A DNA stretch of 60,600 nt from Erysipelotrichaceae bacterium (GTDB lineage: Bacteria > Bacillota_I > Bacilli_A > Erysipelotrichales > Erysipelotrichaceae): the NCBI GenBank assembly GCA_049662565.1, contig JBATBW010000081.1:1-60600 (forward strand), written 5' to 3'. Of this stretch, positions 1,818-60,600 are shown piece after piece. The notes under the pieces are model-generated. The model was not told where the DNA came from and made no database searches. It worked only from the letters and a program-made list of their open reading frames with translations. Position numbers and translations under genes: made by a program. The first letter of the stretch is position 1; each line of letters opens with the position of its first letter.

Positions 1818-3158
1818 ATGCTTATAAATATTTCGATCGATAATTTCTTATCATATAATGATAAACAAGAATTAAATATGATTACCTCTAGTAAAATCCA
1901 AAAGATGAAGGAACATAAAGTGGTAATTAAAGGGACACCGATTTTAAAACATTGCGCTATTTATGGTGCTAATGCGGCAGGGAAATCTAGTTTAGTTAAA
2001 GCTTTTAATTTTATAAATGAGTTTGTGTCGAAAGGTTTTCCTAGTTATGGCAAAGAAATGTATTGTAGAACAAACAAAGATAATGCCACTAGAGTAAGCA
2101 CCTTTGAAATAACTTTTGTGATTGATGATATCTTTTATGCTTATGGGTTTGAAGCAATATTAAAAGAAGGGAAAATACGTAGGGAATGGTTATATAAACT
2201 GAAATCAGATTGCACTTACAAAGTTTTATTTGAGCGTAATAATAAACAAGTTCAAAAGGGGGATGGGCTTAATCTACCATTTTCCGAGTTAACTATAATG
2301 AATAATTGGATAAGTGATTATAATTTAGATTCTCATAAATTGTTTTTAACTTTTATCAATGAACAAGCCTATGGAATAGAAAATACTAAGTTAAGATGCT
2401 TATATGATGTATTTACATGGTTAACTTATGGTATCGATATTTATACGCCACATATGAGTAAAATAAATTTGAATCACTACAGTAAACCGGAATTATTGAA
2501 TAAAATAAAAAAGATAATTAAGTGTTTTGATGTCAGTATTAGTGATGTATTTTTAAAAGAAGTAGAAATATCGGAAATAGAAAAAGAAATTGAACCGGAA
2601 TTTTATCGTAATACGATTAATAAACTTTTAAGTGAAAAAGAAGATAAACCTCACGTATCGATGTTTAATGGAAAAAATTATATTAAAATAGAATGTATGC
2701 CAACTGGCGAATTAAAAGCTTTAGTCCTTAATTTTAAACATGATAAATCGGATTTTGATTTTACACTAGCGGAAGAATCGGATGGCACAAGAAGAATTTT
2801 TGATTTTATGCATATTTTATTATGCGATGTTCCATACAAAGTATTTGTAGTTGATGAATTAGAGCGTAGTTTACATCCGAAGATGACAGAAGCATTCATT
2901 GATTTATTTGATGAATTACATCAAGATGATAAAATTCAATTAATATTCACTACCCATGAATCAACAATAATGAGTCAGGAGTTCTTCCGTCGTGATGAAA
3001 TATGGTTTGTAAAAAAAGATGAAGACAATCACAGTGTGATTTATCCGTTAGATAGCTATGAGGATAGATACGATAAGGTTTTAAACAGAACTTATCTTTG
3101 TGGCGGATATGGAGCTGTCCCAAATATTCGCAAATATGAGGAAGAAGATAGCGAGTAA
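1818..3158 (+). CDS. AAA_21/ABC-type (SMC-like) ATPase, AbiLi/RloA-like
   Basis: Walker A 'GANAAGKSS', Walker B 'VFVVDELERSLHP' and an H-loop-like 'FTTHES' are present. It is paired with an RloB-type gene. Confidence 0.75.
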   Translation: MLINISIDNFLSYNDKQELNMITSSKIQKMKEHKVVIKGTPILKHCAIYGANAAGKSSLVKAFNFINEFVSKGFPSYGKEMYCRTNKDNATRVSTFEITFVIDDIFYAYGFEAILKEGKIRREWLYKLKSDCTYKVLFERNNKQVQKGDGLNLPFSELTIMNNWISDYNLDSHKLFLTFINEQAYGIENTKLRCLYDVFTWLTYGIDIYTPHMSKINLNHYSKPELLNKIKKIIKCFDVSISDVFLKEVEISEIEKEIEPEFYRNTINKLLSEKEDKPHVSMFNGKNYIKIECMPTGELKALVLNFKHDKSDFDFTLAEESDGTRRIFDFMHILLCDVPYKVFVVDELERSLHPKMTEAFIDLFDELHQDDKIQLIFTTHESTIMSQEFFRRDEIWFVKKDEDNHSVIYPLDSYEDRYDKVLNRTYLCGGYGAVPNIRKYEEEDSE

Positions 3159-53399: not shown

Positions 53400-53473
53400 G
53401 GTTCCTTAGCCAAGTGGTAAGGCAATAGACTGCAACTCTGTGATCATCGGTTCAAATCCGATAGGAACCTCCA
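53400..53473 (+). tRNA. tRNA-Cys (GCA)
   Basis: It folds as a cloverleaf by eye, with acceptor ggttcct/aggaacc, anticodon loop ctGCAac, T-loop ggttcaaatcc and an encoded CCA. Confidence 0.93.
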
Positions 53474-53477
53474 TTAT

Positions 53478-53565
53478 CGGGATGTGGCGAAATAGGTAGA
53501 CGCAACGGACTTAAAATCCGTTGGTAGATAATACCGTGCCGGTTCGAGTCCGGCCATCCCGACCA
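53478..53565 (+). tRNA. tRNA-Leu (TAA)
   Basis: The acceptor is cgggatg/catcccg and the anticodon loop is ctTAAaa. It has a long variable arm, T-loop ggttcgagtcc and an encoded CCA. Confidence 0.92.
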
Positions 53566-53607
53566 TTATTTAGCAACAAGCAGTCATGCTTTTTATTTTG
53601 TGAATAC

Positions 53608-53684
53608 GCGCCCATAGCTCAATAGGATAGAGTGTTTGGCTACGAACCAAAAGGTTGTGGGTTCAATTCCTGCTGGGCGCGCCA
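53608..53684 (+). tRNA. tRNA-Arg (ACG)
   Basis: The acceptor is gcgccca/tgggcgc and the anticodon loop is ctACGaa. CCA is encoded. Confidence 0.93.
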
Positions 53685-53694
53685 TTTAATTATT

Positions 53695-53771
53695 CGGGAT
53701 GTAGCACAGCTTGGTAGTGCACTTGATTTGGGATCAAGGGGTCGCAGGTTCGAATCCTGTCATCCCGACCA
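53695..53771 (+). tRNA. tRNA-Pro (TGG)
   Basis: The acceptor is cgggatg/catcccg and the anticodon loop is ttTGGga. CCA is encoded. Confidence 0.93.
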
Positions 53772-53786
53772 TTTAATTAAAAACAT

Positions 53787-53863
53787 GGCGAGGTAGCTTA
53801 GTTGGCTAGAGCGTTCGGTTCATACCCGGAAGGTCGTGGGTTCGAGTCCCACCCTCGCTACCA
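53787..53863 (+). tRNA. tRNA-Met (CAT), elongator type
   Basis: The anticodon loop is ttCATac. The body resembles the Bacillus elongator tRNA-Met ('GGTTCATACCCG') as I recall it. CCA is encoded. Confidence 0.8.
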
Positions 53864-53880
53864 TTATTACTGTAGCTTAA

Positions 53881-53957
53881 GGACCCTTAGCTCAGTTGGT
53901 CAGAGCTACCGGCTCATAACCGGTTGGTCGTAGGTTCGAGTCCTACAGGGTCCACCA
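53881..53957 (+). tRNA. tRNA with CAT anticodon, probable tRNA-Ile2 (lysidine-modified)
   Basis: The anticodon loop is ctCATaa. The acceptor 'ggaccct' and the body closely resemble B. subtilis tRNA-Ile(CAU) as I recall it. CCA is encoded. Confidence 0.7.
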
Positions 53958-53976
53958 TTTTACTAATTTAATCTTT

Positions 53977-54067
53977 GGAGGAATACCCAAGTGGTTGAAG
54001 GGTCCGGTCTTGAAAACCGGTAGGTCATGCAAGTGGCGCCTGGGTTCGAATCCCAGTTCCTCCGCCA
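53977..54067 (+). tRNA. tRNA-Ser (TGA)
   Basis: The acceptor is ggaggaa/ttcctcc and the anticodon loop is ctTGAaa. It has a long variable arm and an encoded CCA. Confidence 0.92.
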
Positions 54068-54081
54068 TTACATTTATTTAT

Positions 54082-54158
<77 letters not shown>

Positions 54159-54160
54159 AT

Positions 54161-54236
54161 GGTTCCGTAGCTCAGTCGGTAGAGCAGTGGACTGAAAATC
54201 CACGTGTCGCTGGTTCAATTCCGGCCGGAACCACCA
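54161..54236 (+). tRNA. tRNA-Phe (GAA)
   Basis: The acceptor is ggttccg/cggaacc and the anticodon loop is ctGAAaa. CCA is encoded. Confidence 0.93.
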
Positions 54237-54286: not shown

Positions 54287-54718
54287 ATGAAAATACTAGT
54301 TAGTGCATGTTTAGTTGGGGTTAATTGTAAATATAATGGTGGTAATAATTATCATCCGTATTTAGTTGACTTTCTAAAGGATCATGAGTATATTACTGTT
54401 TGTCCAGAGTTGTTGTCAGGGATGGGGTGTCCGCGTAATTGTGTGGAACAAGTTAATGAGCGTTTTATTGATCAATTTGGTAATGATGTAAGTGATATAT
54501 TTGTTAAAGGAGTTAATTTAGCTTTATCTAAATTAAAGGATGAAGACATTGATTTGGTTATTCTTCAGTCACGTAGTCCGACTTGTGGGGTTAATCAAAG
54601 ATATGATGGTAGTTTTAGCGGTTCTTTAATTAATGAGTCGGGTTTGTTTGCTAAAAGACTGAAAGAATTGGGATATAAAGTTATTGATATTAAGGATTTT
54701 AAGGTCTTAGGAAACTAA
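54287..54718 (+). CDS. DUF523-family protein (TudS/YbbK-like, Cys-rich)
   Basis: 'MKILVSACLVGVNCKYNGG' and 'SPTCG' are typical DUF523 motifs. Confidence 0.8.
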   Translation: MKILVSACLVGVNCKYNGGNNYHPYLVDFLKDHEYITVCPELLSGMGCPRNCVEQVNERFIDQFGNDVSDIFVKGVNLALSKLKDEDIDLVILQSRSPTCGVNQRYDGSFSGSLINESGLFAKRLKELGYKVIDIKDFKVLGN

Positions 54719-54728
54719 GATCTTTTTT
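54702..54728 (+). terminator. intrinsic terminator
   Basis: The hairpin aggtcttag-gaaa-ctaagatct is followed by T6. It overlaps the stop codon. Confidence 0.7.
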
Positions 54729-54840
54729 ATTTGTGTAATTATATAATCTAATTATGAATATCAGTTAATATAATAATCAAAAAAATTAAATATTATACAC
54801 GATTATTTTGTAAAAATCAACACTTTTACTTGTGAAATTA

Positions 54841-54869
54841 TTGATTTTATCGTTTGGTTATATTAGAAT
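54841..54869 (+). promoter_or_regulatory. candidate promoter of the cooC-like/HAD-family operon
   Basis: TTGATT (54841-54846), a 17-nt spacer, then TAGAAT (54864-54869). Confidence 0.5.
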
Positions 54870-54903
54870 AAAGGGGCAGACATACAAAAGGGGAGGTGTA
54901 CAT

Positions 54904-55665
54904 ATGGGAAAAGCGATTATTGCGCTTGCTGGTAAAGGTGGAGTAGGTAAGACTTCAATTTGTGCGACGATTGTAAGACAACTTGTTAAACAGTATCCAG
55001 ATAAAAGAATTTTAGCGATTGATGCTGATCCAGCGGTGGGACTTGCGACTGCTTTGAATGTGAAAGTAGAAAAAACTATTGATGACATTCGCAAGCAAAT
55101 CGTTGAGGCTGGTGAAAAGAATGATGATAAGCGTCAAGTTAAAGAACTATTAGGTGAAGCTCGTTATTTATTGTTCGATGCGATGATAGAAGAAGAGGGT
55201 TTCACTTTTATTGCGGTAGGTCGTCCGGAAGCTAAAGGTTGTTATTGCGGTATTAATTCGTATTTAAAAGAAGTGATTAGCTTGCTTAGTCAAGAATTTG
55301 ATTATGTGGTTATTGATGGCGAAGCAGGTATTGAACAGATTAATCGTCGTGTTATGGAGCAAGTAACACATTTAATTTTAGTTAGTGATCCAAGCAAAAA
55401 AGGAACTACTGTTATTCAAACGATTAAAAGAGTAGCGGATGATTTAGTGATGTATCAAGAAGTTGGAGCTATTATCAATCGTTTTAATGATGAGAGTCTG
55501 AAGGGTTTAATAAACACGGGTGGTATTAATGTTTTAAGTTATATTAGTGATGATGTTAACTTACAAATGTGTGATATCAAAGGAGAAAGTGTTTTAGATT
55601 TAACTGATAATAGTAATATTGTCAAGGGTGTAGAAGAGGCATTGATTAAACTTAACATAATATAG
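54904..55665 (+). CDS. CooC/AcsF-type MinD-fold ATPase with a CxC motif
   Basis: The deviant Walker A 'AGKGGVGKTS', 'AIDADP', 'GRPEAKGCYCGINS' (Cys-x-Cys) and 'VIDGEAGIEQ' are present. I chose the ATG at 54904, which follows a GGGGAGG RBS; the track extension from 54832 covers the promoter. Confidence 0.75.
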   Translation: MGKAIIALAGKGGVGKTSICATIVRQLVKQYPDKRILAIDADPAVGLATALNVKVEKTIDDIRKQIVEAGEKNDDKRQVKELLGEARYLLFDAMIEEEGFTFIAVGRPEAKGCYCGINSYLKEVISLLSQEFDYVVIDGEAGIEQINRRVMEQVTHLILVSDPSKKGTTVIQTIKRVADDLVMYQEVGAIINRFNDESLKGLINTGGINVLSYISDDVNLQMCDIKGESVLDLTDNSNIVKGVEEALIKLNII

Positions 55666-55678
55666 AAAGGGGATTTGT

Positions 55679-56896
55679 GTGAAAGATTTAAAACATATGA
55701 TTTATTTTGAGAGTTTGTTAGAAGATGCGAATAATGATCTTGTGCGTGAAGCGCAAAGTAATGGTCGTTTAGCATTAGGATATACATGCTTTCATATGCC
55801 AGAAGTATTATTGAATGTTGACAATTGTTTTTCGGTTCGCTTAAGAGCGCCAAATACGGGGTCAATGGAAGTCGCAACTTATTACATGTGTAATAGTAGT
55901 TGTGAGTATAGCCGAGCTTTATTAGAAAGAGCGATGGAAGGGAATTATCATTTCCTAGATGCGATGTGTGGTGTCGATTTATGTGAAGCGATGAATCGTT
56001 GTATGGAAAACATGGAGGTTTTACAAATCCAAGATCCAAAGAAAGAAAAGTTCTTTTGGACTAATACCGATGTAGCTTATGACGATGATGAAAAGAGTGT
56101 CAAACATACGGTTGAACAAATTAAGAGAAAAGTTATGGATCAATTAGCGGATCGTTATGGTGTTGATGTTAGTGATAAGGCGATACGTAAAGCGGTTGAC
56201 CAACATAATGAAGTTTGTCGGGTTTTGACAGAAATTGGGGAATTTCGTAAATTGGATAATCCGCCAATTACGGGTCATGAATTTCATATTTTAACTTTGG
56301 TTACTTATTGTTGTCCAAAGGATTTAATTATTGATAAATTAAGAGAAACTTTAGAAGAAATAAAAAATAGAGAAGTAGATAAGAAGAAACAACATCGCAT
56401 TAGAGTAGTAGTAGTGGGTAGTGAAATTGATGACCCAGATTTAATTTCTTTAATTGAAGATAATGGGGCTTTAGTTGTGGCAGATCGTTTTTGTTATGGC
56501 AGTATCCCAGGACGTCAAGAGATTATTTTAAATGATGAAGAAGATGCATTGACACAAGTTTGTCGTCGTTATCTACAAGATACCGAGTGTCCGCGTCATT
56601 GCGCACCTAAACGGGTTAAGTATCGTCATGATCATGTGGATCAATTAGTGAAAGAATATCATGCGGATGGGGTTATTTACCAACAAATGAAGTTTTGTAC
56701 TTATTGGTCATATGAAAGAACTTTAGCTTCGCATATTATGACTGAAGAATATCATATTCCGACTTTATCGATTGATAGACCATATCAAAGTCGAACTAGT
56801 GGTCAATTACGGACAAGGGTGCAAGCTTTTGTGGAAAATGTTGAAATTAAACAAATTAAAGCTAAACGTGAATTAAAGGAAAAGGAGGGGAAATAG
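55679..56896 (+). CDS. 2-hydroxyacyl-CoA dehydratase / benzoyl-CoA reductase family D-component subunit (double-cubane-protein-like), smaller subunit
   Basis: The start is a GTG after a GGGGA RBS. The protein is Cys-rich ('GYTCFHMPE', 'MCGVDLCEAMNRC', 'RFCYGS', 'KFCTYW') and has the family-typical length. Confidence 0.75.
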   Translation: MKDLKHMIYFESLLEDANNDLVREAQSNGRLALGYTCFHMPEVLLNVDNCFSVRLRAPNTGSMEVATYYMCNSSCEYSRALLERAMEGNYHFLDAMCGVDLCEAMNRCMENMEVLQIQDPKKEKFFWTNTDVAYDDDEKSVKHTVEQIKRKVMDQLADRYGVDVSDKAIRKAVDQHNEVCRVLTEIGEFRKLDNPPITGHEFHILTLVTYCCPKDLIIDKLRETLEEIKNREVDKKKQHRIRVVVVGSEIDDPDLISLIEDNGALVVADRFCYGSIPGRQEIILNDEEDALTQVCRRYLQDTECPRHCAPKRVKYRHDHVDQLVKEYHADGVIYQQMKFCTYWSYERTLASHIMTEEYHIPTLSIDRPYQSRTSGQLRTRVQAFVENVEIKQIKAKRELKEKEGK

Positions 56897-58465
56897 ATGA
56901 GTGAATATAAGCCAAAGAATTATAACTTAGGTAGTTTATATGATAATGATCATCGGGCGATGACTCATCGTGAATGGAAGGGTTTTAAAGACACGATGTA
57001 TGATTTTGGTCGTTGGTTAAAATGTTATGGGTTTATTGCTTCTCAATTAGGGGGGCATCCGATTTTAGTTATTCGGGCCTTAAAGCGTTATCGTTGGTTC
57101 TTATCTTATTTGACGGCTGCCAATATGATTGACCGTCATACGATTGGTATGCGTGGTAAGGAGCTTCGCTATATTCATGAAGAATTTTTTGCTTTAGTGC
57201 ATAATGCGACGATTAATTGTCGTAAAATATTGGTTCGTGATGAACATTTACGTCCAAATAGTAAGAAGGCGAAGGCGTTACGTGCTAATACTATCATGTT
57301 TGATGAAATGACTCCTAAGTCAATTATGTATGGTTTTCCGACTTTAGAGTGGTTAGATATTGCGATGGCGACGATTGGTATGCCTGGGGAAATAGATCAA
57401 ATTGCGAATGTATATTATATTGATAAAATTGAAGAATATGGGATGCCAGCGGACGTTTGTCCATTACCGGCTGCGGAGTGTGGTGTTGCGGTAGTTGATG
57501 ATTTTCCAATTGTTGGTTCATCTTTTATTACTAGTACGATGCCTTGTGATGGTAGTATTGGTCAAACAACTTTTATGGCTCGTTATTTGAAGGATTATCC
57601 AATTTTCCAAATAACTCCGCCTCAACGTTTTAATGAGGAAGAAGTACAAGAGTTTGCGGTTAAGAATTTACAAGAATGTATTGAGTTTATTGAAAAGAAT
57701 TATAATGTGAAATGGGATTGGGATGCTTTTTGGGAAAATTCGAAAAAGTATAATGAATCTTGTCAAGCAATTATAGATAAATGGGATATTAATACGACTG
57801 ATTATCCTCAAGTTTGTGGAGCGGCTTTATCTTTACCGCGAGAATTTGAATTCCAAGGTGCAGGTTGTATGGATGATTTCTTATATAAGACTCAACTTCG
57901 GACGACAGAAATGGCGAAAAAAGGCTATGAAGAAGATAAGAAAGCGGGTGTTAAACAATACCGTCATCGGGCGATAGTTTGGGCCTGCCCAGCGCATTAT
58001 TATACTAACTTTACTTATTGGGCGGATTCTACTTGGGGTGTTAAGACGCTAGTGGATATGGAATGTATGCTTTCTTATCATATGTATCATATTGGTGATG
58101 AAAAACAAGCGATGATAGATGTGGCGAAGAGTTATGAAAAGATGATGATGAGGTCACATACTAATGGTGGTTATGTTAACTCTTTGGATGAGTGTTGGAA
58201 GATGTGTAAGAAGTTTAATGTGGATATCGTTATTATGTATGATCATGTTAGTTGTAAGAACGTGGGATGTTTACATGGATTATATGAAGATCAAGCTAGA
58301 GAACATGGTGTTCATTTAATTTGGGTACCACATGATTTAATGGATCCAAGAACGGTTTCTCGTAAAGCGATGCGTGATGCTTTCAATAAATATATGACTA
58401 ACGTGTTCCGTGAGGAACCGATTGATCCTTCGTTTGTGGATTATGATGACCCAATTGCGTGGTAG
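56897..58465 (+). CDS. 2-hydroxyacyl-CoA dehydratase / benzoyl-CoA reductase family D-component subunit, larger subunit
   Basis: The ATG directly abuts the upstream stop. 'ADVCPLPAAECG', 'STMPCDGS', 'WACPAHYY' and 'HVSCKN' are family-like Cys motifs. Confidence 0.75.
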   Translation: MSEYKPKNYNLGSLYDNDHRAMTHREWKGFKDTMYDFGRWLKCYGFIASQLGGHPILVIRALKRYRWFLSYLTAANMIDRHTIGMRGKELRYIHEEFFALVHNATINCRKILVRDEHLRPNSKKAKALRANTIMFDEMTPKSIMYGFPTLEWLDIAMATIGMPGEIDQIANVYYIDKIEEYGMPADVCPLPAAECGVAVVDDFPIVGSSFITSTMPCDGSIGQTTFMARYLKDYPIFQITPPQRFNEEEVQEFAVKNLQECIEFIEKNYNVKWDWDAFWENSKKYNESCQAIIDKWDINTTDYPQVCGAALSLPREFEFQGAGCMDDFLYKTQLRTTEMAKKGYEEDKKAGVKQYRHRAIVWACPAHYYTNFTYWADSTWGVKTLVDMECMLSYHMYHIGDEKQAMIDVAKSYEKMMMRSHTNGGYVNSLDECWKMCKKFNVDIVIMYDHVSCKNVGCLHGLYEDQAREHGVHLIWVPHDLMDPRTVSRKAMRDAFNKYMTNVFREEPIDPSFVDYDDPIAW

Positions 58466-58482
58466 AAAAGGGAGATATAAAA

Positions 58483-59274
58483 ATGAAATATTATGGTGGA
58501 TGTGACGTTGGCTCTACTTATACAAAATGTGTAGTGGTTGACGAAAGTGGTAAAATGGTGGCGAACAGCACTATTCGTAGTAAAATAAATGCGGCGCAAA
58601 GTGCTAGTGATGCTTTAAATCAAACTATTAGTCAAATTGGTTTAAAATCATTGAATGAATTAGCTTATTTAGTTGGAACGGGTTATGGAAGAAATAAGGT
58701 GCCTCAAGCACAAGAAAATATTTCGGAAATTTCTTGTCATGCGATGGGTGTTCATATGACTAATCCTAATGTTAAGGCAATTATTGATATTGGGGGACAA
58801 GATGTTAAGGGTATTGCGATTGATACAGATGGTACAGTTCAAACTTTCGCAATGAATGATAAATGTGCAGCTGGTACTGGTCGTTTCTTTGAAGCGATGG
58901 CTAATGCTTTTGAATGTACTTTAGAAGAATTTTCTAATTTGTCTTTGACAGCGAAAAATGTTATTCCGATTACGGCGCAATGTACTGTTTTTGCGGAATC
59001 AGAAGTAATTACTTTAGTTGGTGAAGGTAAACCTCGTGATGAAATTGCGGCAGGTATTCAACAAGCGGTAGCGAAAAGATGTTTTGTTATGGCGAAAAAA
59101 GCCGGAGCTAAAGATCAAATTACTTTAACTGGTGGTTGTGCTAAGAATACGGGTTTAAAAAGAGCAATTGAAAATGTTTTAAAGATTAAAGTTGTGGAAT
59201 TAAACATTGATCCGCAATTAATGGGTGCTTTAGGGGCGGCTGAATATGCTCGTCAAAAAGGAATGGAGGTATAG
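58483..59274 (+). CDS. HgdC/BcrAD-BadFG-type ATP-dependent activase (archerase)
   Basis: 'YYGGCDVGSTYTKCVV' is an ASKHA phosphate-1 motif. 'DIGGQD', 'DKCAAGTGRFFE' (bridging-cluster Cys) and 'LTGGCAKN' are also present. Confidence 0.88.
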   Translation: MKYYGGCDVGSTYTKCVVVDESGKMVANSTIRSKINAAQSASDALNQTISQIGLKSLNELAYLVGTGYGRNKVPQAQENISEISCHAMGVHMTNPNVKAIIDIGGQDVKGIAIDTDGTVQTFAMNDKCAAGTGRFFEAMANAFECTLEEFSNLSLTAKNVIPITAQCTVFAESEVITLVGEGKPRDEIAAGIQQAVAKRCFVMAKKAGAKDQITLTGGCAKNTGLKRAIENVLKIKVVELNIDPQLMGALGAAEYARQKGMEV

Positions 59275-59277
59275 TAT

Positions 59278-59433
59278 ATGCCTTGGTATTTAATCGTTTT
59301 AATTGTGATTGTTGTTTTGTTTGTTTTATTATTTGTTGTTTATATAACTAATGCGGATTTAAAGTTAGTAGAAAAAACGTATAATTCATTATTGAAATAT
59401 CAAGAAAACAGAAAAGTCGATACTAAAATCTAA
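59278..59433 (+). CDS. 51-aa single-pass membrane peptide (not in the ORF track)
   Basis: I translated it by hand as MPWYLIVLIVIVVLFVLLFVVYITNADLKLVEKTYNSLLKYQENRKVDTKI*. A GGAGG RBS lies 8 nt upstream, and its stop overlaps the next start (TAATG). Confidence 0.6.
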   Translation: MPWYLIVLIVIVVLFVLLFVVYITNADLKLVEKTYNSLLKYQENRKVDTKI

Positions 59434-60134
59434 TGGAATTGTTTGATCATTTTATTAGTGAGATTGGTCAACTTGTAGTTGATAGAAAAATCTATAGTGC
59501 TAGTGTTTCAAATTTTAAAGGACGTAAAGGTGAATTAATTTTAAATAAGGATGCGGCTTTTACTTTAGGTAGTATGGGTAAGCATAGTGCTAACTGTACG
59601 TTATTTACTAATCAAGATATTAAAGATGAAGTAATTGTTTATGGTGAAGATTTAAATGAAATTACTAGTGACAAATCTTTTGTTCGTATTGCCATAATTC
59701 AAACATCAAATATTGAAGAACATGGTGAACAAGCAGCTTATAACATTATGGAAAACATAAGTCTACGGAAGTATGATGTTTTTGTGGATGGTTATATGGT
59801 GCGAACATCAATGGATTTAAAGGAAGATGTTAGAGTTAGTAAAGATGCGATAAAAAAGGGTCTTAAATTTAAAGATGTTGGTAATGAATATATTGAAATA
59901 TATAAACAAAATAAATATGTAAAGGGTTGTACGATTATTTTTATTACTAGTGATGACGCTAATTATCAAAGGTTAGAAGAAATTAGTTATAAGGCGGAAC
60001 AAACTTATAAAGCATTAAATCATTTATTAAAAGATTTAAAGATGGATTGTCATGCCTGTGGTTGGAAGAGTGTTTGCGACGAAGTAGAAGGTATGAAAGA
60101 AATGCATAGTGCATTATTAAAGAAGGAGATATAA
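59433..60134 (+). CDS. protein resembling the central domain of acetyl-CoA synthase (AcsB/CdhC-like fragment) with a C-terminal CxxCx5C
   Basis: 'VRVSKDAIKKGLKFKDVGNEYI', 'CTIIFITSDDANYQRL' and 'KDEVIVYGEDLNEI' parallel the Moorella AcsB central domain as I recall it. The protein ends with 'CHACGWKSVC'. Confidence 0.55.
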   Translation: MELFDHFISEIGQLVVDRKIYSASVSNFKGRKGELILNKDAAFTLGSMGKHSANCTLFTNQDIKDEVIVYGEDLNEITSDKSFVRIAIIQTSNIEEHGEQAAYNIMENISLRKYDVFVDGYMVRTSMDLKEDVRVSKDAIKKGLKFKDVGNEYIEIYKQNKYVKGCTIIFITSDDANYQRLEEISYKAEQTYKALNHLLKDLKMDCHACGWKSVCDEVEGMKEMHSALLKKEI

Positions 60135-60600
60135 TGGCCGAATTTAAAACAGATAAACAAATTCAAGATTTGTGTGATAGTTTTGGTGATTGGTTTAAGG
60201 ATAAAAGAGCGAATTGTGCGCATAATGCAGCCCAAATGACTAACGATTTATATCCTTATACTTCTATTTTTTCACCAATTAGAATTAATCGGATGGTTGT
60301 GAAAAATCGGGTGGTAATGGCACCGATGGGTAATCTTATGATGTGTGAAGAACATGGTCGTCCAAATGAAAAAATGATTCAATACTTCCTCGCAAGAGCT
60401 AAAGGTGGGGTTGGATTAATTACTAGTGGTTTAGTACCAATTAGTGATGGTATTGATAATACGGTTCAAGAACCAAATAAGAAAGTGATGATGCCTAGAA
60501 TCTCACCGGAAAGAACGTTGATGTCGGGGTGGCGTGATTTAGCACAAGGGTGTCATGCTTATGGTAGTCGTTTCTTTATTCAGTTTACACCGGGTTTAGG
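60134..60600 (+). CDS. Old-Yellow-Enzyme family NADH:flavin oxidoreductase / 2-enoate reductase-like protein, 5' part (continues beyond window)
   Basis: I translated it by hand. It reads 'IFSPIRINRMVVKNRVVMAPMGN', 'FLARAKGGVGLITSGL' and 'LAQGCHAYGSRFFIQFTPG'. The ATG overlaps the upstream stop (TAATG), and the frame is open to nt 60600. Confidence 0.8.
   Translation, partial: MAEFKTDKQIQDLCDSFGDWFKDKRANCAHNAAQMTNDLYPYTSIFSPIRINRMVVKNRVVMAPMGNLMMCEEHGRPNEKMIQYFLARAKGGVGLITSGLVPISDGIDNTVQEPNKKVMMPRISPERTLMSGWRDLAQGCHAYGSRFFIQFTPGL

Follow-up and report, generated by a model that had tools for sequence, protein, structure and literature searches.

A stand-alone homologue of the acetyl-CoA synthase A2 domain, encoded with a CooC-like ATPase in predicted ATP-dependent reductase operons

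The stretch of DNA analysed here, positions 1 to 60,600 of contig JBATBW010000081.1 from an Erysipelotrichaceae bacterium (assembly GCA_049662565.1; hereafter the window), carries near its right end a tightly packed operon of same-strand genes, the sixth of which is the subject of this study (Table 1). This gene, referred to as the target, encodes a stand-alone homologue of the central (A2) domain of acetyl-CoA synthase (ACS) with a short cysteine-containing tail, and both in the window and in most related loci it is accompanied by a gene for a P-loop ATPase of the CooC/AcsF type. The operon begins after a terminator-like hairpin at 54701-54724. The extent of the target open reading frame (ORF) agrees with a preliminary description of the locus, made from the letters of the sequence, and its ATG start is backed by the N-terminus M-x-[LIF]-[FY]-[DN] shared by the homologues. 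This ATG overlaps the stop codon of the preceding gene for a small membrane peptide (TAATG), and the ATG of the following flavoenzyme gene in turn overlaps the target stop codon.

Table 1. Features of the operon in the window (aa, amino acids; DCCP, double-cubane cluster protein; OYE, old yellow enzyme)
Feature	Position	Strand	Basis
CooC/AcsF-type P-loop ATPase, first operon gene	54904..55665	+	best PDB match CooC1 (3kje), E 5.2e-14
BzdN/DCCP-like HGD-D subunit, 405 aa, probable double-cubane [8Fe-9S] carrier	55679..56896	+	Pfam HGD-D, E 1e-89
Divergent HGD-D subunit, 522 aa, probable catalytic partner (BzdO/HadB-like)	56897..58465	+	Pfam HGD-D, E 3e-35, residues 172-486
ATP-dependent activase ('archerase', BcrAD/BadFG/HgdC type)	58459..59274	+	Pfam BcrAD_BadFG, E 1e-58
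Single-pass membrane peptide (predicted), 51 aa	59278..59433	+	conserved ORF
Target: stand-alone ACS A2-domain homologue with C-terminal Cys3-His tail, 233 aa	59433..60134	+	ATG start
A2 core, target residues 32-174	59526..59954	+	Pfam PF03598, profile positions 10-152 of 155; hhalign spans residues 38-175
Putative metal-binding tail, C206-x2-C209-x5-C215-x9-H225	60048..60107	+	TGT codon at 60048, CAT at 60105
OYE/2,4-dienoyl-CoA-reductase-like Fe-S flavoenzyme, N-terminus, cut by the window end	60134..60600	+	Pfam Oxidored_FMN

The target family is homologous to the A2 domain of ACS, as had been proposed from the sequence, and the Pfam model, the family profile, the profile-profile comparison and the predicted structure all agree on this. 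Against PF03598 (CdhC), which is now a 155-position model of the ACS central domain, the target scores 29.8 bits (gathering score 24, E 6.6e-7), and the same model is matched by 38 of 42 family members; in addition, target residues 33-203 align with positions 306-473 of the 705-position bifunctional model of NCBIfam. A search of the PDB with the target as a single sequence was not significant and reached ACS at E 0.57-1.3 only, so that the family profile was needed. Built from 42 homologues, this profile retrieved the ACS chains of Moorella, Carboxydothermus, Clostridium autoethanogenum and Methanosarcina at E 6e-5 to 1e-2 and aligned with residues 331-509 of Moorella ACS at about 20% identity, and hhalign related the family to ACS with a probability of 90.9% (E 1e-6, 133 columns). 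The AlphaFold (AF2) model of the target has a mean pLDDT of 85.7 and a pTM of 0.81 and is confident over residues 1-200. When it was compared with the PDB by Foldseek, ACS structures occupied the first 23 places (best E 1.3e-8), and the next match, the 24th, had an E value of 0.14. Together with the sequence profiles, these matches to ACS only indicate that the fold of the target is that of ACS A2 and of no other solved structure.

Three segments that the preliminary description had aligned with Moorella ACS were all reproduced by HMMER, with the labels of the two proteins exchanged: the strings DVRVSKDAIKKGLKFKDVGNEYI, CTIIFITSDDANYQRL and KDEVIVYGEDLNEI belong to the window protein, and WLRVSKDAVAKGFRFKNYGEIL, VQVTIFTDEAKVKEY and DGKIEVIGPDIDQI to Moorella ACS. 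Compared with ACS (AcsB of Moorella, 1OAO and 1MJG; CdhC, 9C0S), the target corresponds to A2 plus the first ~30 residues of A3 in the same fold, and the motifs E-x-G-G, G-x-D, R-V-S-K-x-A and F..G are common to ACS and the target family.

Behind the A2 core, the protein continues into the region where the A-cluster domain of ACS begins. Its segment C206-H-A-C209-G-W-K-S-V-C215, with cysteines 28 to 18 residues from the stop, is followed by H225. Among 154 full-length family members C206 and C215 are each conserved in 153 and C209 in 152, and H225 is found in 131 (85%), with arginine in ten and aspartate in four. The corresponding motif of ACS, C506-x2-C509-x8-C518-x9-C528, was confirmed in PDB sequences; according to structural work on ACS, these four cysteines are the cubane ligands of Moorella ACS, and C595 and C597 its Ni ligands. 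In the hmmsearch alignment C206 and C209 fall on C506 and C509, and the spacing C215-x9-H225 equals that of C518-x9-C528. The target family thus has its ligands spaced by x2, x5 and x9 versus x2, x8 and x9 in ACS, with three residues fewer between the second and third ligand, and 34 residues separate the last A2 strand from the first cysteine versus 36 in ACS. A Cys3(His) site is therefore conserved, as far as sequence comparison can tell, at the positions of the ACS cubane ligands, and it may bind a [4Fe-4S] cluster. The suggestion that the protein is truncated after its first cysteine motif holds in so far as it ends just past the start of the A-cluster region; it understated what is kept, which includes residues at all four ligand positions.

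The target ends eight residues after H225, as do nearly all full-length homologues, and in ACS the Ni-site motif TSCGCFE (TSC595-G-C597) lies about 90 residues further along. The target therefore lacks the Cys-Gly-Cys site along with the remainder of A3; it has no N-terminal docking domain (A1) either, in accordance with the preliminary description. In ACS of C. autoethanogenum, four A2 residues that hold acetyl-CoA and assist in acetyl transfer have been described, R383, H386, G399 and W405 (bioRxiv 10.1101/2024.08.05.606187), which correspond to R405, H408, G421 and W427 of Moorella. At ~20% identity the alignment is moderately reliable here, and it places I or S at the position of R405, R or K at H408 and Q or V at W427; all four residues, G421 included, align with non-equivalent residues of the family. 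Judged from these residues, the target cannot be an acetyl-CoA synthase because it lacks both the Ni-Ni site and the acetyl-transfer residues, and binding of CoA in the manner of ACS appears unlikely. In contrast to ACS, the target is not encoded with carbon monoxide dehydrogenase (CODH), corrinoid protein or methyltransferase. We detected no CODH, corrinoid Fe-S protein or methyltransferase domains among the scanned window ORFs (most of those of at least 240 aa), whose matches were to housekeeping proteins, nor were such genes present in the gene tables of the five related loci L001-L005.

The target had been regarded as an orphan with no gene related to CODH/ACS nearby. This is incorrect because the first gene of the same operon encodes a CooC-type ATPase with a CxC motif. 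Its P-loop reads GKGGVGKT (deviant Walker A), and its GCYCG segment aligns with QCYCR of CooC1, which is annotated as a CODH/ACS accessory protein (PDB 3kje). The CxC cysteines C113 and C115 as well as H156 are invariant in 51 of 51 homologues. These homologues are 252-259 aa long and begin at the equivalent of the ATG at 54904 (MGKAIIALAGKGG...), and the GTG start listed for this ORF at 54832 is probably too far upstream. A promoter-like match is located at 54841-54869, within the upstream extension of the ORF (54832-54903).

AcsF and CooC act in the ATP-dependent insertion of Ni into the ACS A-cluster or the CODH C-cluster (Gregg et al. 2016; CooC1 structure 3KJE). The arrangement found here resembles AcsF/CooC and their Ni-Fe-S clients in that a CxC P-loop ATPase is encoded with an ACS-derived protein and the two stay together across distant lineages. 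It differs in two respects: the Ni ligands of ACS are missing from the client, and the pair resides in reductase operons, not in Wood-Ljungdahl clusters. By analogy with these systems, the CooC-like ATPase may act on the target protein.

The pairing itself is evident from gene order. Co-occurrence was counted per locus, not per whole genome, in 55 related loci with sufficient flanking sequence. The CooC-like ATPase is present in 51 of them, which contradicts the notion of an orphan gene, the first HGD-D subunit in 49, the second in 48 and the activase in 49; all four occur together in 47. The membrane peptide was found by tblastn in at least 34 of the 55, which is a lower bound, and the flavoenzyme in 18, so that the latter has to be considered optional. 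The gene order of the window operon is repeated in L001-L005. In three other loci (L053, L064, L085) HGD-D genes are missing and the ACS-like gene comes right after a CooC-like gene, and in three distant members (L086-L088) the order is reversed, with the ACS-like gene immediately preceding the CooC-like gene. The ACS-like/CooC-like pair is thus the conserved unit.

A second architecture was found in a metagenome-assembled genome (MAG) of Thermodesulfobacteriota (L090) and in two related metagenome contigs (L092, L093). Here, the order is a ~500-aa protein, two HGD-D subunits, two BcrAD-type ATPases, the ACS-like protein and the CooC-like ATPase, and in L090 and L092 acyl-CoA dehydrogenases come after the CooC-like gene. 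The ~500-aa protein (467-525 aa; L090:3107-4600, L092:412-1989, L093:4343-5746) has no Pfam match; as a candidate homologue of a window protein it was rejected, since it has no detectable similarity to any of them. A gene pair for URO-D and B12-binding proteins lies near the L090 cluster, and an MTHFR (methylenetetrahydrofolate reductase) gene near the L088 cluster. In the three cultured hosts that were inspected, the cassette is closely preceded by a gene for a TetR-family regulator (L041:584-1165, L019:2685-3386, L028:2676-3341). Such a regulator is also present in the L090 and L093 clusters; none is found upstream in the window.

In two loci the cassette is directly preceded by another HGD-D pair, which is more divergent (L065:551-3281, L071:3-2635). 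Both possess two HGD-D pairs, yet only one CooC-like, one activase and one ACS-like gene, which suggests that the accessory genes may serve two reductase modules. In addition, the start of many MAG contigs lies some 300-800 bp ahead of the ACS-like gene, in several cases inside the activase gene (L031, L033-L036, L039, L040, L043, L044, L051, L073, L074, L081 and others). Across these loci the activase protein is 77-88% identical to the window copy, and the contig starts are probably due to assembly breakage at this highly conserved gene.

The genes between the ATPase and the target are those of a radical reductase/dehydratase-type system, as had been noted before. For the 405-aa subunit the best PDB match is BzdN (8s02_B, E 5e-25), with HadC and DCCP also near, and the best NCBIfam match is double_cubane (E 1.9e-42), at 145.7 bits below the cut-off of 350 bits. 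Its conserved cysteines C37, C50, C75, C102, C272, C304 and C340 are arranged in the order of the seven-cysteine motif of DCCP, CX19CX18-19CX29CX166-170CX32-34CX32C (PMC7317905). The distance C102-x169-C272 lies within the published X166-170, and the others deviate (x12, x24 and x26 vs X19, X18-19 and X29; x31 vs X32-34; x35 vs X32). In BzdN, the [8Fe-9S] double cubane acts as an electron store from which the aqua-[4Fe-4S] site of BzdO is served (PMC11971306). The 522-aa subunit had no sequence match in the PDB; its cysteines C188, C217 and C453 are conserved, and C364 is found in 47 of 50 sequences. The activase scores 215 bits against TIGR00241 (cut-off 125).

Such a combination of a BzdN/DCCP-like subunit, a second HGD-D subunit and an archerase-type activase is also found in BzdNOPQ (8S02; PMC11971306) and in DCCP/DCCP-R (6ENO; PMC7317905). 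In contrast to the operon in the window, these systems have been described without an ACS-like protein, a CooC-like ATPase or a 51-aa peptide (PMC11971306; PMC7317905). Systems of the BCR and dehydratase types receive their electrons via an ATP-dependent activase (PMC11971306; PMC7317905). From its genes the operon is therefore predicted to encode an ATP-dependent reductase resembling class I benzoyl-CoA reductase (BCR) and DCCP, often together with a flavoenzyme resembling 2,4-dienoyl-CoA reductase. In homologous loci this flavoenzyme is 760 aa long, and a full-length homologue (L001:10744-13023) contains Oxidored_FMN and Pyr_redox_2 domains. In the window its Oxidored_FMN domain is preceded by an N-terminal extension of about 44 residues (60134-60265) with two cysteines (MAEFKTDKQIQDLCDSFGDWFKDKRANCAH...). 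ORFs of 51-58 aa equivalent to the membrane peptide are present in L001-L005, and their alignment shows a hydrophobic N-terminal stretch (residues ~3-25), which by eye resembles a membrane helix, followed by a conserved N-x-D-[LM]-K-[LM].

BCR- and dehydratase-type systems need a low-potential donor such as ferredoxin, and the characterised BCR/DCCP-type systems use separate ferredoxins. In the cassette no ferredoxin gene was seen in the gene tables of the window and of L001-L005. One family member (P0181), however, is itself fused to a 2x[4Fe-4S] ferredoxin domain and followed by a CooC-like gene. The absence of a ferredoxin gene, the [4Fe-4S]-type ligand positions and this fusion led us to favour, tentatively, a reading in which the target is an ACS-derived Fe-S module, a client of the CooC-like ATPase and a redox or docking partner of the reductase. 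An ancestral couple of a CooC/AcsF-type ATPase and its ACS client would have been co-opted as a unit, and of the client only the A2 scaffold and a short [4Fe-4S] cubane loop would have been retained. The CooC-like ATPase would load or repair the metal site of the target in analogy to AcsF and ACS, and the loaded protein would then serve the ATP-dependent class I BCR/double-cubane-type reductase, most likely by supplying the activase or the double-cubane subunit with low-potential electrons. Among the roles considered in the preliminary description, electron transfer thus receives some support, from the single natural fusion to a ferredoxin domain, and we infer an electron-transfer or docking role; an adaptor for substrates or CoA does not fit the replaced ACS residues.

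Several observations weigh against this interpretation. The tail is modelled with low confidence (pLDDT ~50), and the hhalign alignment ends with the A2 core and does not reach the tail, so that the equivalence of the ligands is based on one hmmsearch alignment together with spacing and position. At the fourth ligand position, members of the Thermodesulfobacteriota type and other distant members have alanine or arginine, and the Cys3-His motif could instead bind Zn or another single ion. In three loci (L067, L078, L079) the ACS-like gene occurs with no cassette within 8 kb, and the ferredoxin fusion represents a single cluster on two short contigs. Furthermore, the characterised BCR, 2-hydroxyacyl-CoA dehydratase (HAD) and DCCP enzymes need no such partner, and DCCP overproduced in E. 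coli carried its double cubane (PMC7317905).

The main rival explanation, which we consider rather doubtful, is that the target and the CooC-like ATPase form a maturation pair. The target would then be a transient scaffold or carrier for Fe-S clusters or metals that assembles or repairs clusters of the reductase, e.g. the [8Fe-9S] cluster, and has no place in the working enzyme. Three of the ligands are universal and the fourth varies, and cluster carriers typically show partial or shared ligation. The pairs located away from HGD-D genes and the ACS-like genes that stand alone are as would be expected of trans-acting factors, and the two loci with a second reductase module have two HGD-D pairs per CooC-like/ACS-like pair. 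NifH, an ATPase of the same superclass as the CooC-like protein, matures the nitrogenase P-cluster from two cubanes. A review of DCCP likens its double-cubane cluster to P-cluster precursors (PMC7317905), and the relatives CooC1 (3kje) and AcsF (Gregg et al. 2016) act in Ni insertion or maturation. On the other hand, DCCP with its [8Fe-9S] cluster was obtained recombinantly from E. coli, and BzdNO has also been produced as a recombinant enzyme, with no dedicated maturase mentioned in either report (PMC7317905; PMC11971306). A 200-residue A2 domain is moreover large for a carrier, and the translational coupling of the target to the membrane peptide and the flavoenzyme looks like that of a stoichiometric component.

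An adaptor with no redox function is improbable. The Cys3-His motif would in this case form a structural Zn (or Fe) knuckle and the A2 domain would act in docking, for example by holding the soluble reductase or the activase at the 51-aa peptide, whose gene is directly upstream and translationally coupled. CxxC...C...H is also a common Zn-binding pattern, and the 28-residue tail is short and its model poor. However, the motif is found exactly at the position of the ACS cubane, the histidine is exchanged for non-ligand residues in some clades, and a CooC-type ATPase would lack an obvious job, while the ferredoxin fusion points to redox chemistry.

There is little to recommend an adaptor for CoA or acyl-CoA, in which A2 would present a CoA thioester to the reductase or the flavoenzyme. 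In ACS, acetyl-CoA binds mainly to A2 (bioRxiv 10.1101/2024.08.05.606187), the basic motif R-V-S-K-x-A-x-K is conserved in both ACS and the target family, and CoA esters are the substrates of BCR, HAD and FadH-like enzymes. Yet this explanation loses support because the residues of ACS for CoA contact and catalysis are not conserved: the adenine-stacking tryptophan (W405 in C. autoethanogenum, W427 in Moorella) has become Q or V, and the catalytic arginine and histidine (R405 and H408 in Moorella) are replaced. In addition, the ACS site is completed by A3, which is absent from the target, and no CoA ligase or transferase was seen in the cassettes examined. A decaying acsB/cdhC fragment, for which the truncated length relative to ACS is the sole argument, is practically refuted by the invariant residues along the whole length, by the conserved synteny (at least 47 loci), by 45 close relatives and 812 distant cluster representatives of which the full-length ones are nearly all stand-alone proteins of ~230-250 aa, and by the lack of ACS pathway genes among the window ORFs scanned.

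The favoured reading, an Fe-S module that partners the reductase, could be taken one step further, which we regard as a long shot. The CooC-like ATPase might load a hetero-metal, most plausibly Ni, at C209, the counterpart of the cubane-bridging C509 of ACS, with the flanking invariant residues D205, D216 and E217 together with H225 completing the site, which would make it a minimal Ni-[4Fe-4S] relative of the A-cluster. If this were true, ATP-dependent Birch-type/double-cubane reductases that are widespread in gut bacteria would be nickel-dependent, and a new kind of Ni-Fe-S cofactor would exist outside CO and acetyl-CoA metabolism.

ACS domains, like ATPases of the CooC/AcsF type, are seen as belonging to the metabolism of CO and acetyl-CoA; here, they appear to have been co-opted together into operons of ATP-driven radical reductases, mostly in Clostridia of gut and rumen that have not been cultured and, with another gene arrangement, in Thermodesulfobacteriota. 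The target gives experimental access to the question of how double-cubane/BCR-type enzymes are supplied with low-potential electrons or special metal sites, and provides a natural minimal A-cluster cubane site for the study of ACS evolution and of the action of AcsF and CooC. It is also part of a large uncharacterised enzyme system of gut anaerobes, often under a TetR-type regulator, for which cultured hosts such as Pseudoflavonifractor capillosus ATCC 29799, Clostridium algidicarnis DSM 15099 and Owariibacterium komagatae are at hand.

The size of the family is considerable. A word-indexed search yielded 45 relatives at 34-52% identity, nearly all of 233-248 aa, and an exhaustive profile search 812 representatives of 50%-identity clusters at E<=1e-3, 542 of them at E<=1e-10. 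Among the 150 listed matches, the full-length proteins are almost all 230-260 aa long and about a quarter are shorter fragments. At least 578 stretches encoding a relative were found among species-representative genomes. The relatives are mostly encoded in MAGs of Oscillospiraceae, Acutalibacteraceae and Ruminococcaceae; Pseudoflavonifractor intestinihominis is a further cultured host. In the source annotations they are called either 'hypothetical protein' or, automatically, 'CO dehydrogenase/acetyl-CoA synthase beta subunit'. A full-text literature search retrieved nothing on the cassette, the ACS-like/CooC-like pairing or the family, and the ACS-like family is not mentioned in reviews on double-cubane proteins and on Fe-S enzymes of the gut. 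The only precedent found is a remark that CATH 3.30.1650.10, one of the three CATH parts of the old Pfam family CdhC and presumably the A2 domain, occurs alone in some proteins, e.g. UniProt B8FZT4 (Triant & Pearson 2015, PMC4443539). In contrast to our analysis, this remark concerned database quality and included neither function nor cysteine motif nor gene context.

Some features outside the operon deserve brief mention. Directly upstream of the cassette lies a TudS-like gene (2-thiouracil desulfurase, PF04463; 54287-54718), and TudS is a single-domain relative of BCR/HAD subunits (PMC11971306). Its proximity is probably a coincidence because the terminator-like hairpin follows it and no tblastn match to it was obtained in any related locus. 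Further upstream, nine tRNA genes (Cys, Leu, Arg, Pro, three Met, Ser and Phe; 53400-54236) are located between an Opp-type transporter and the cassette. This ABC transporter (45.8-53.2 kb) was considered as a clue to nickel uptake and rejected: its best models are the oligopeptide-type OppA and OppB, not NikA, the tRNA array intervenes, and it is not syntenic elsewhere. The window has a GC content of 31.9%, with nearly all large ORFs on the + strand, and includes genes for UvrAB, HprK, Lgt, a TrxB-like protein, RapZ, WhiA, HtpG, PGK, TIM, SHMT, LeuRS and TyrRS; amid such housekeeping genes, an ORF at 1818-3158 encodes an AAA_21/AbiEii-like ATPase.

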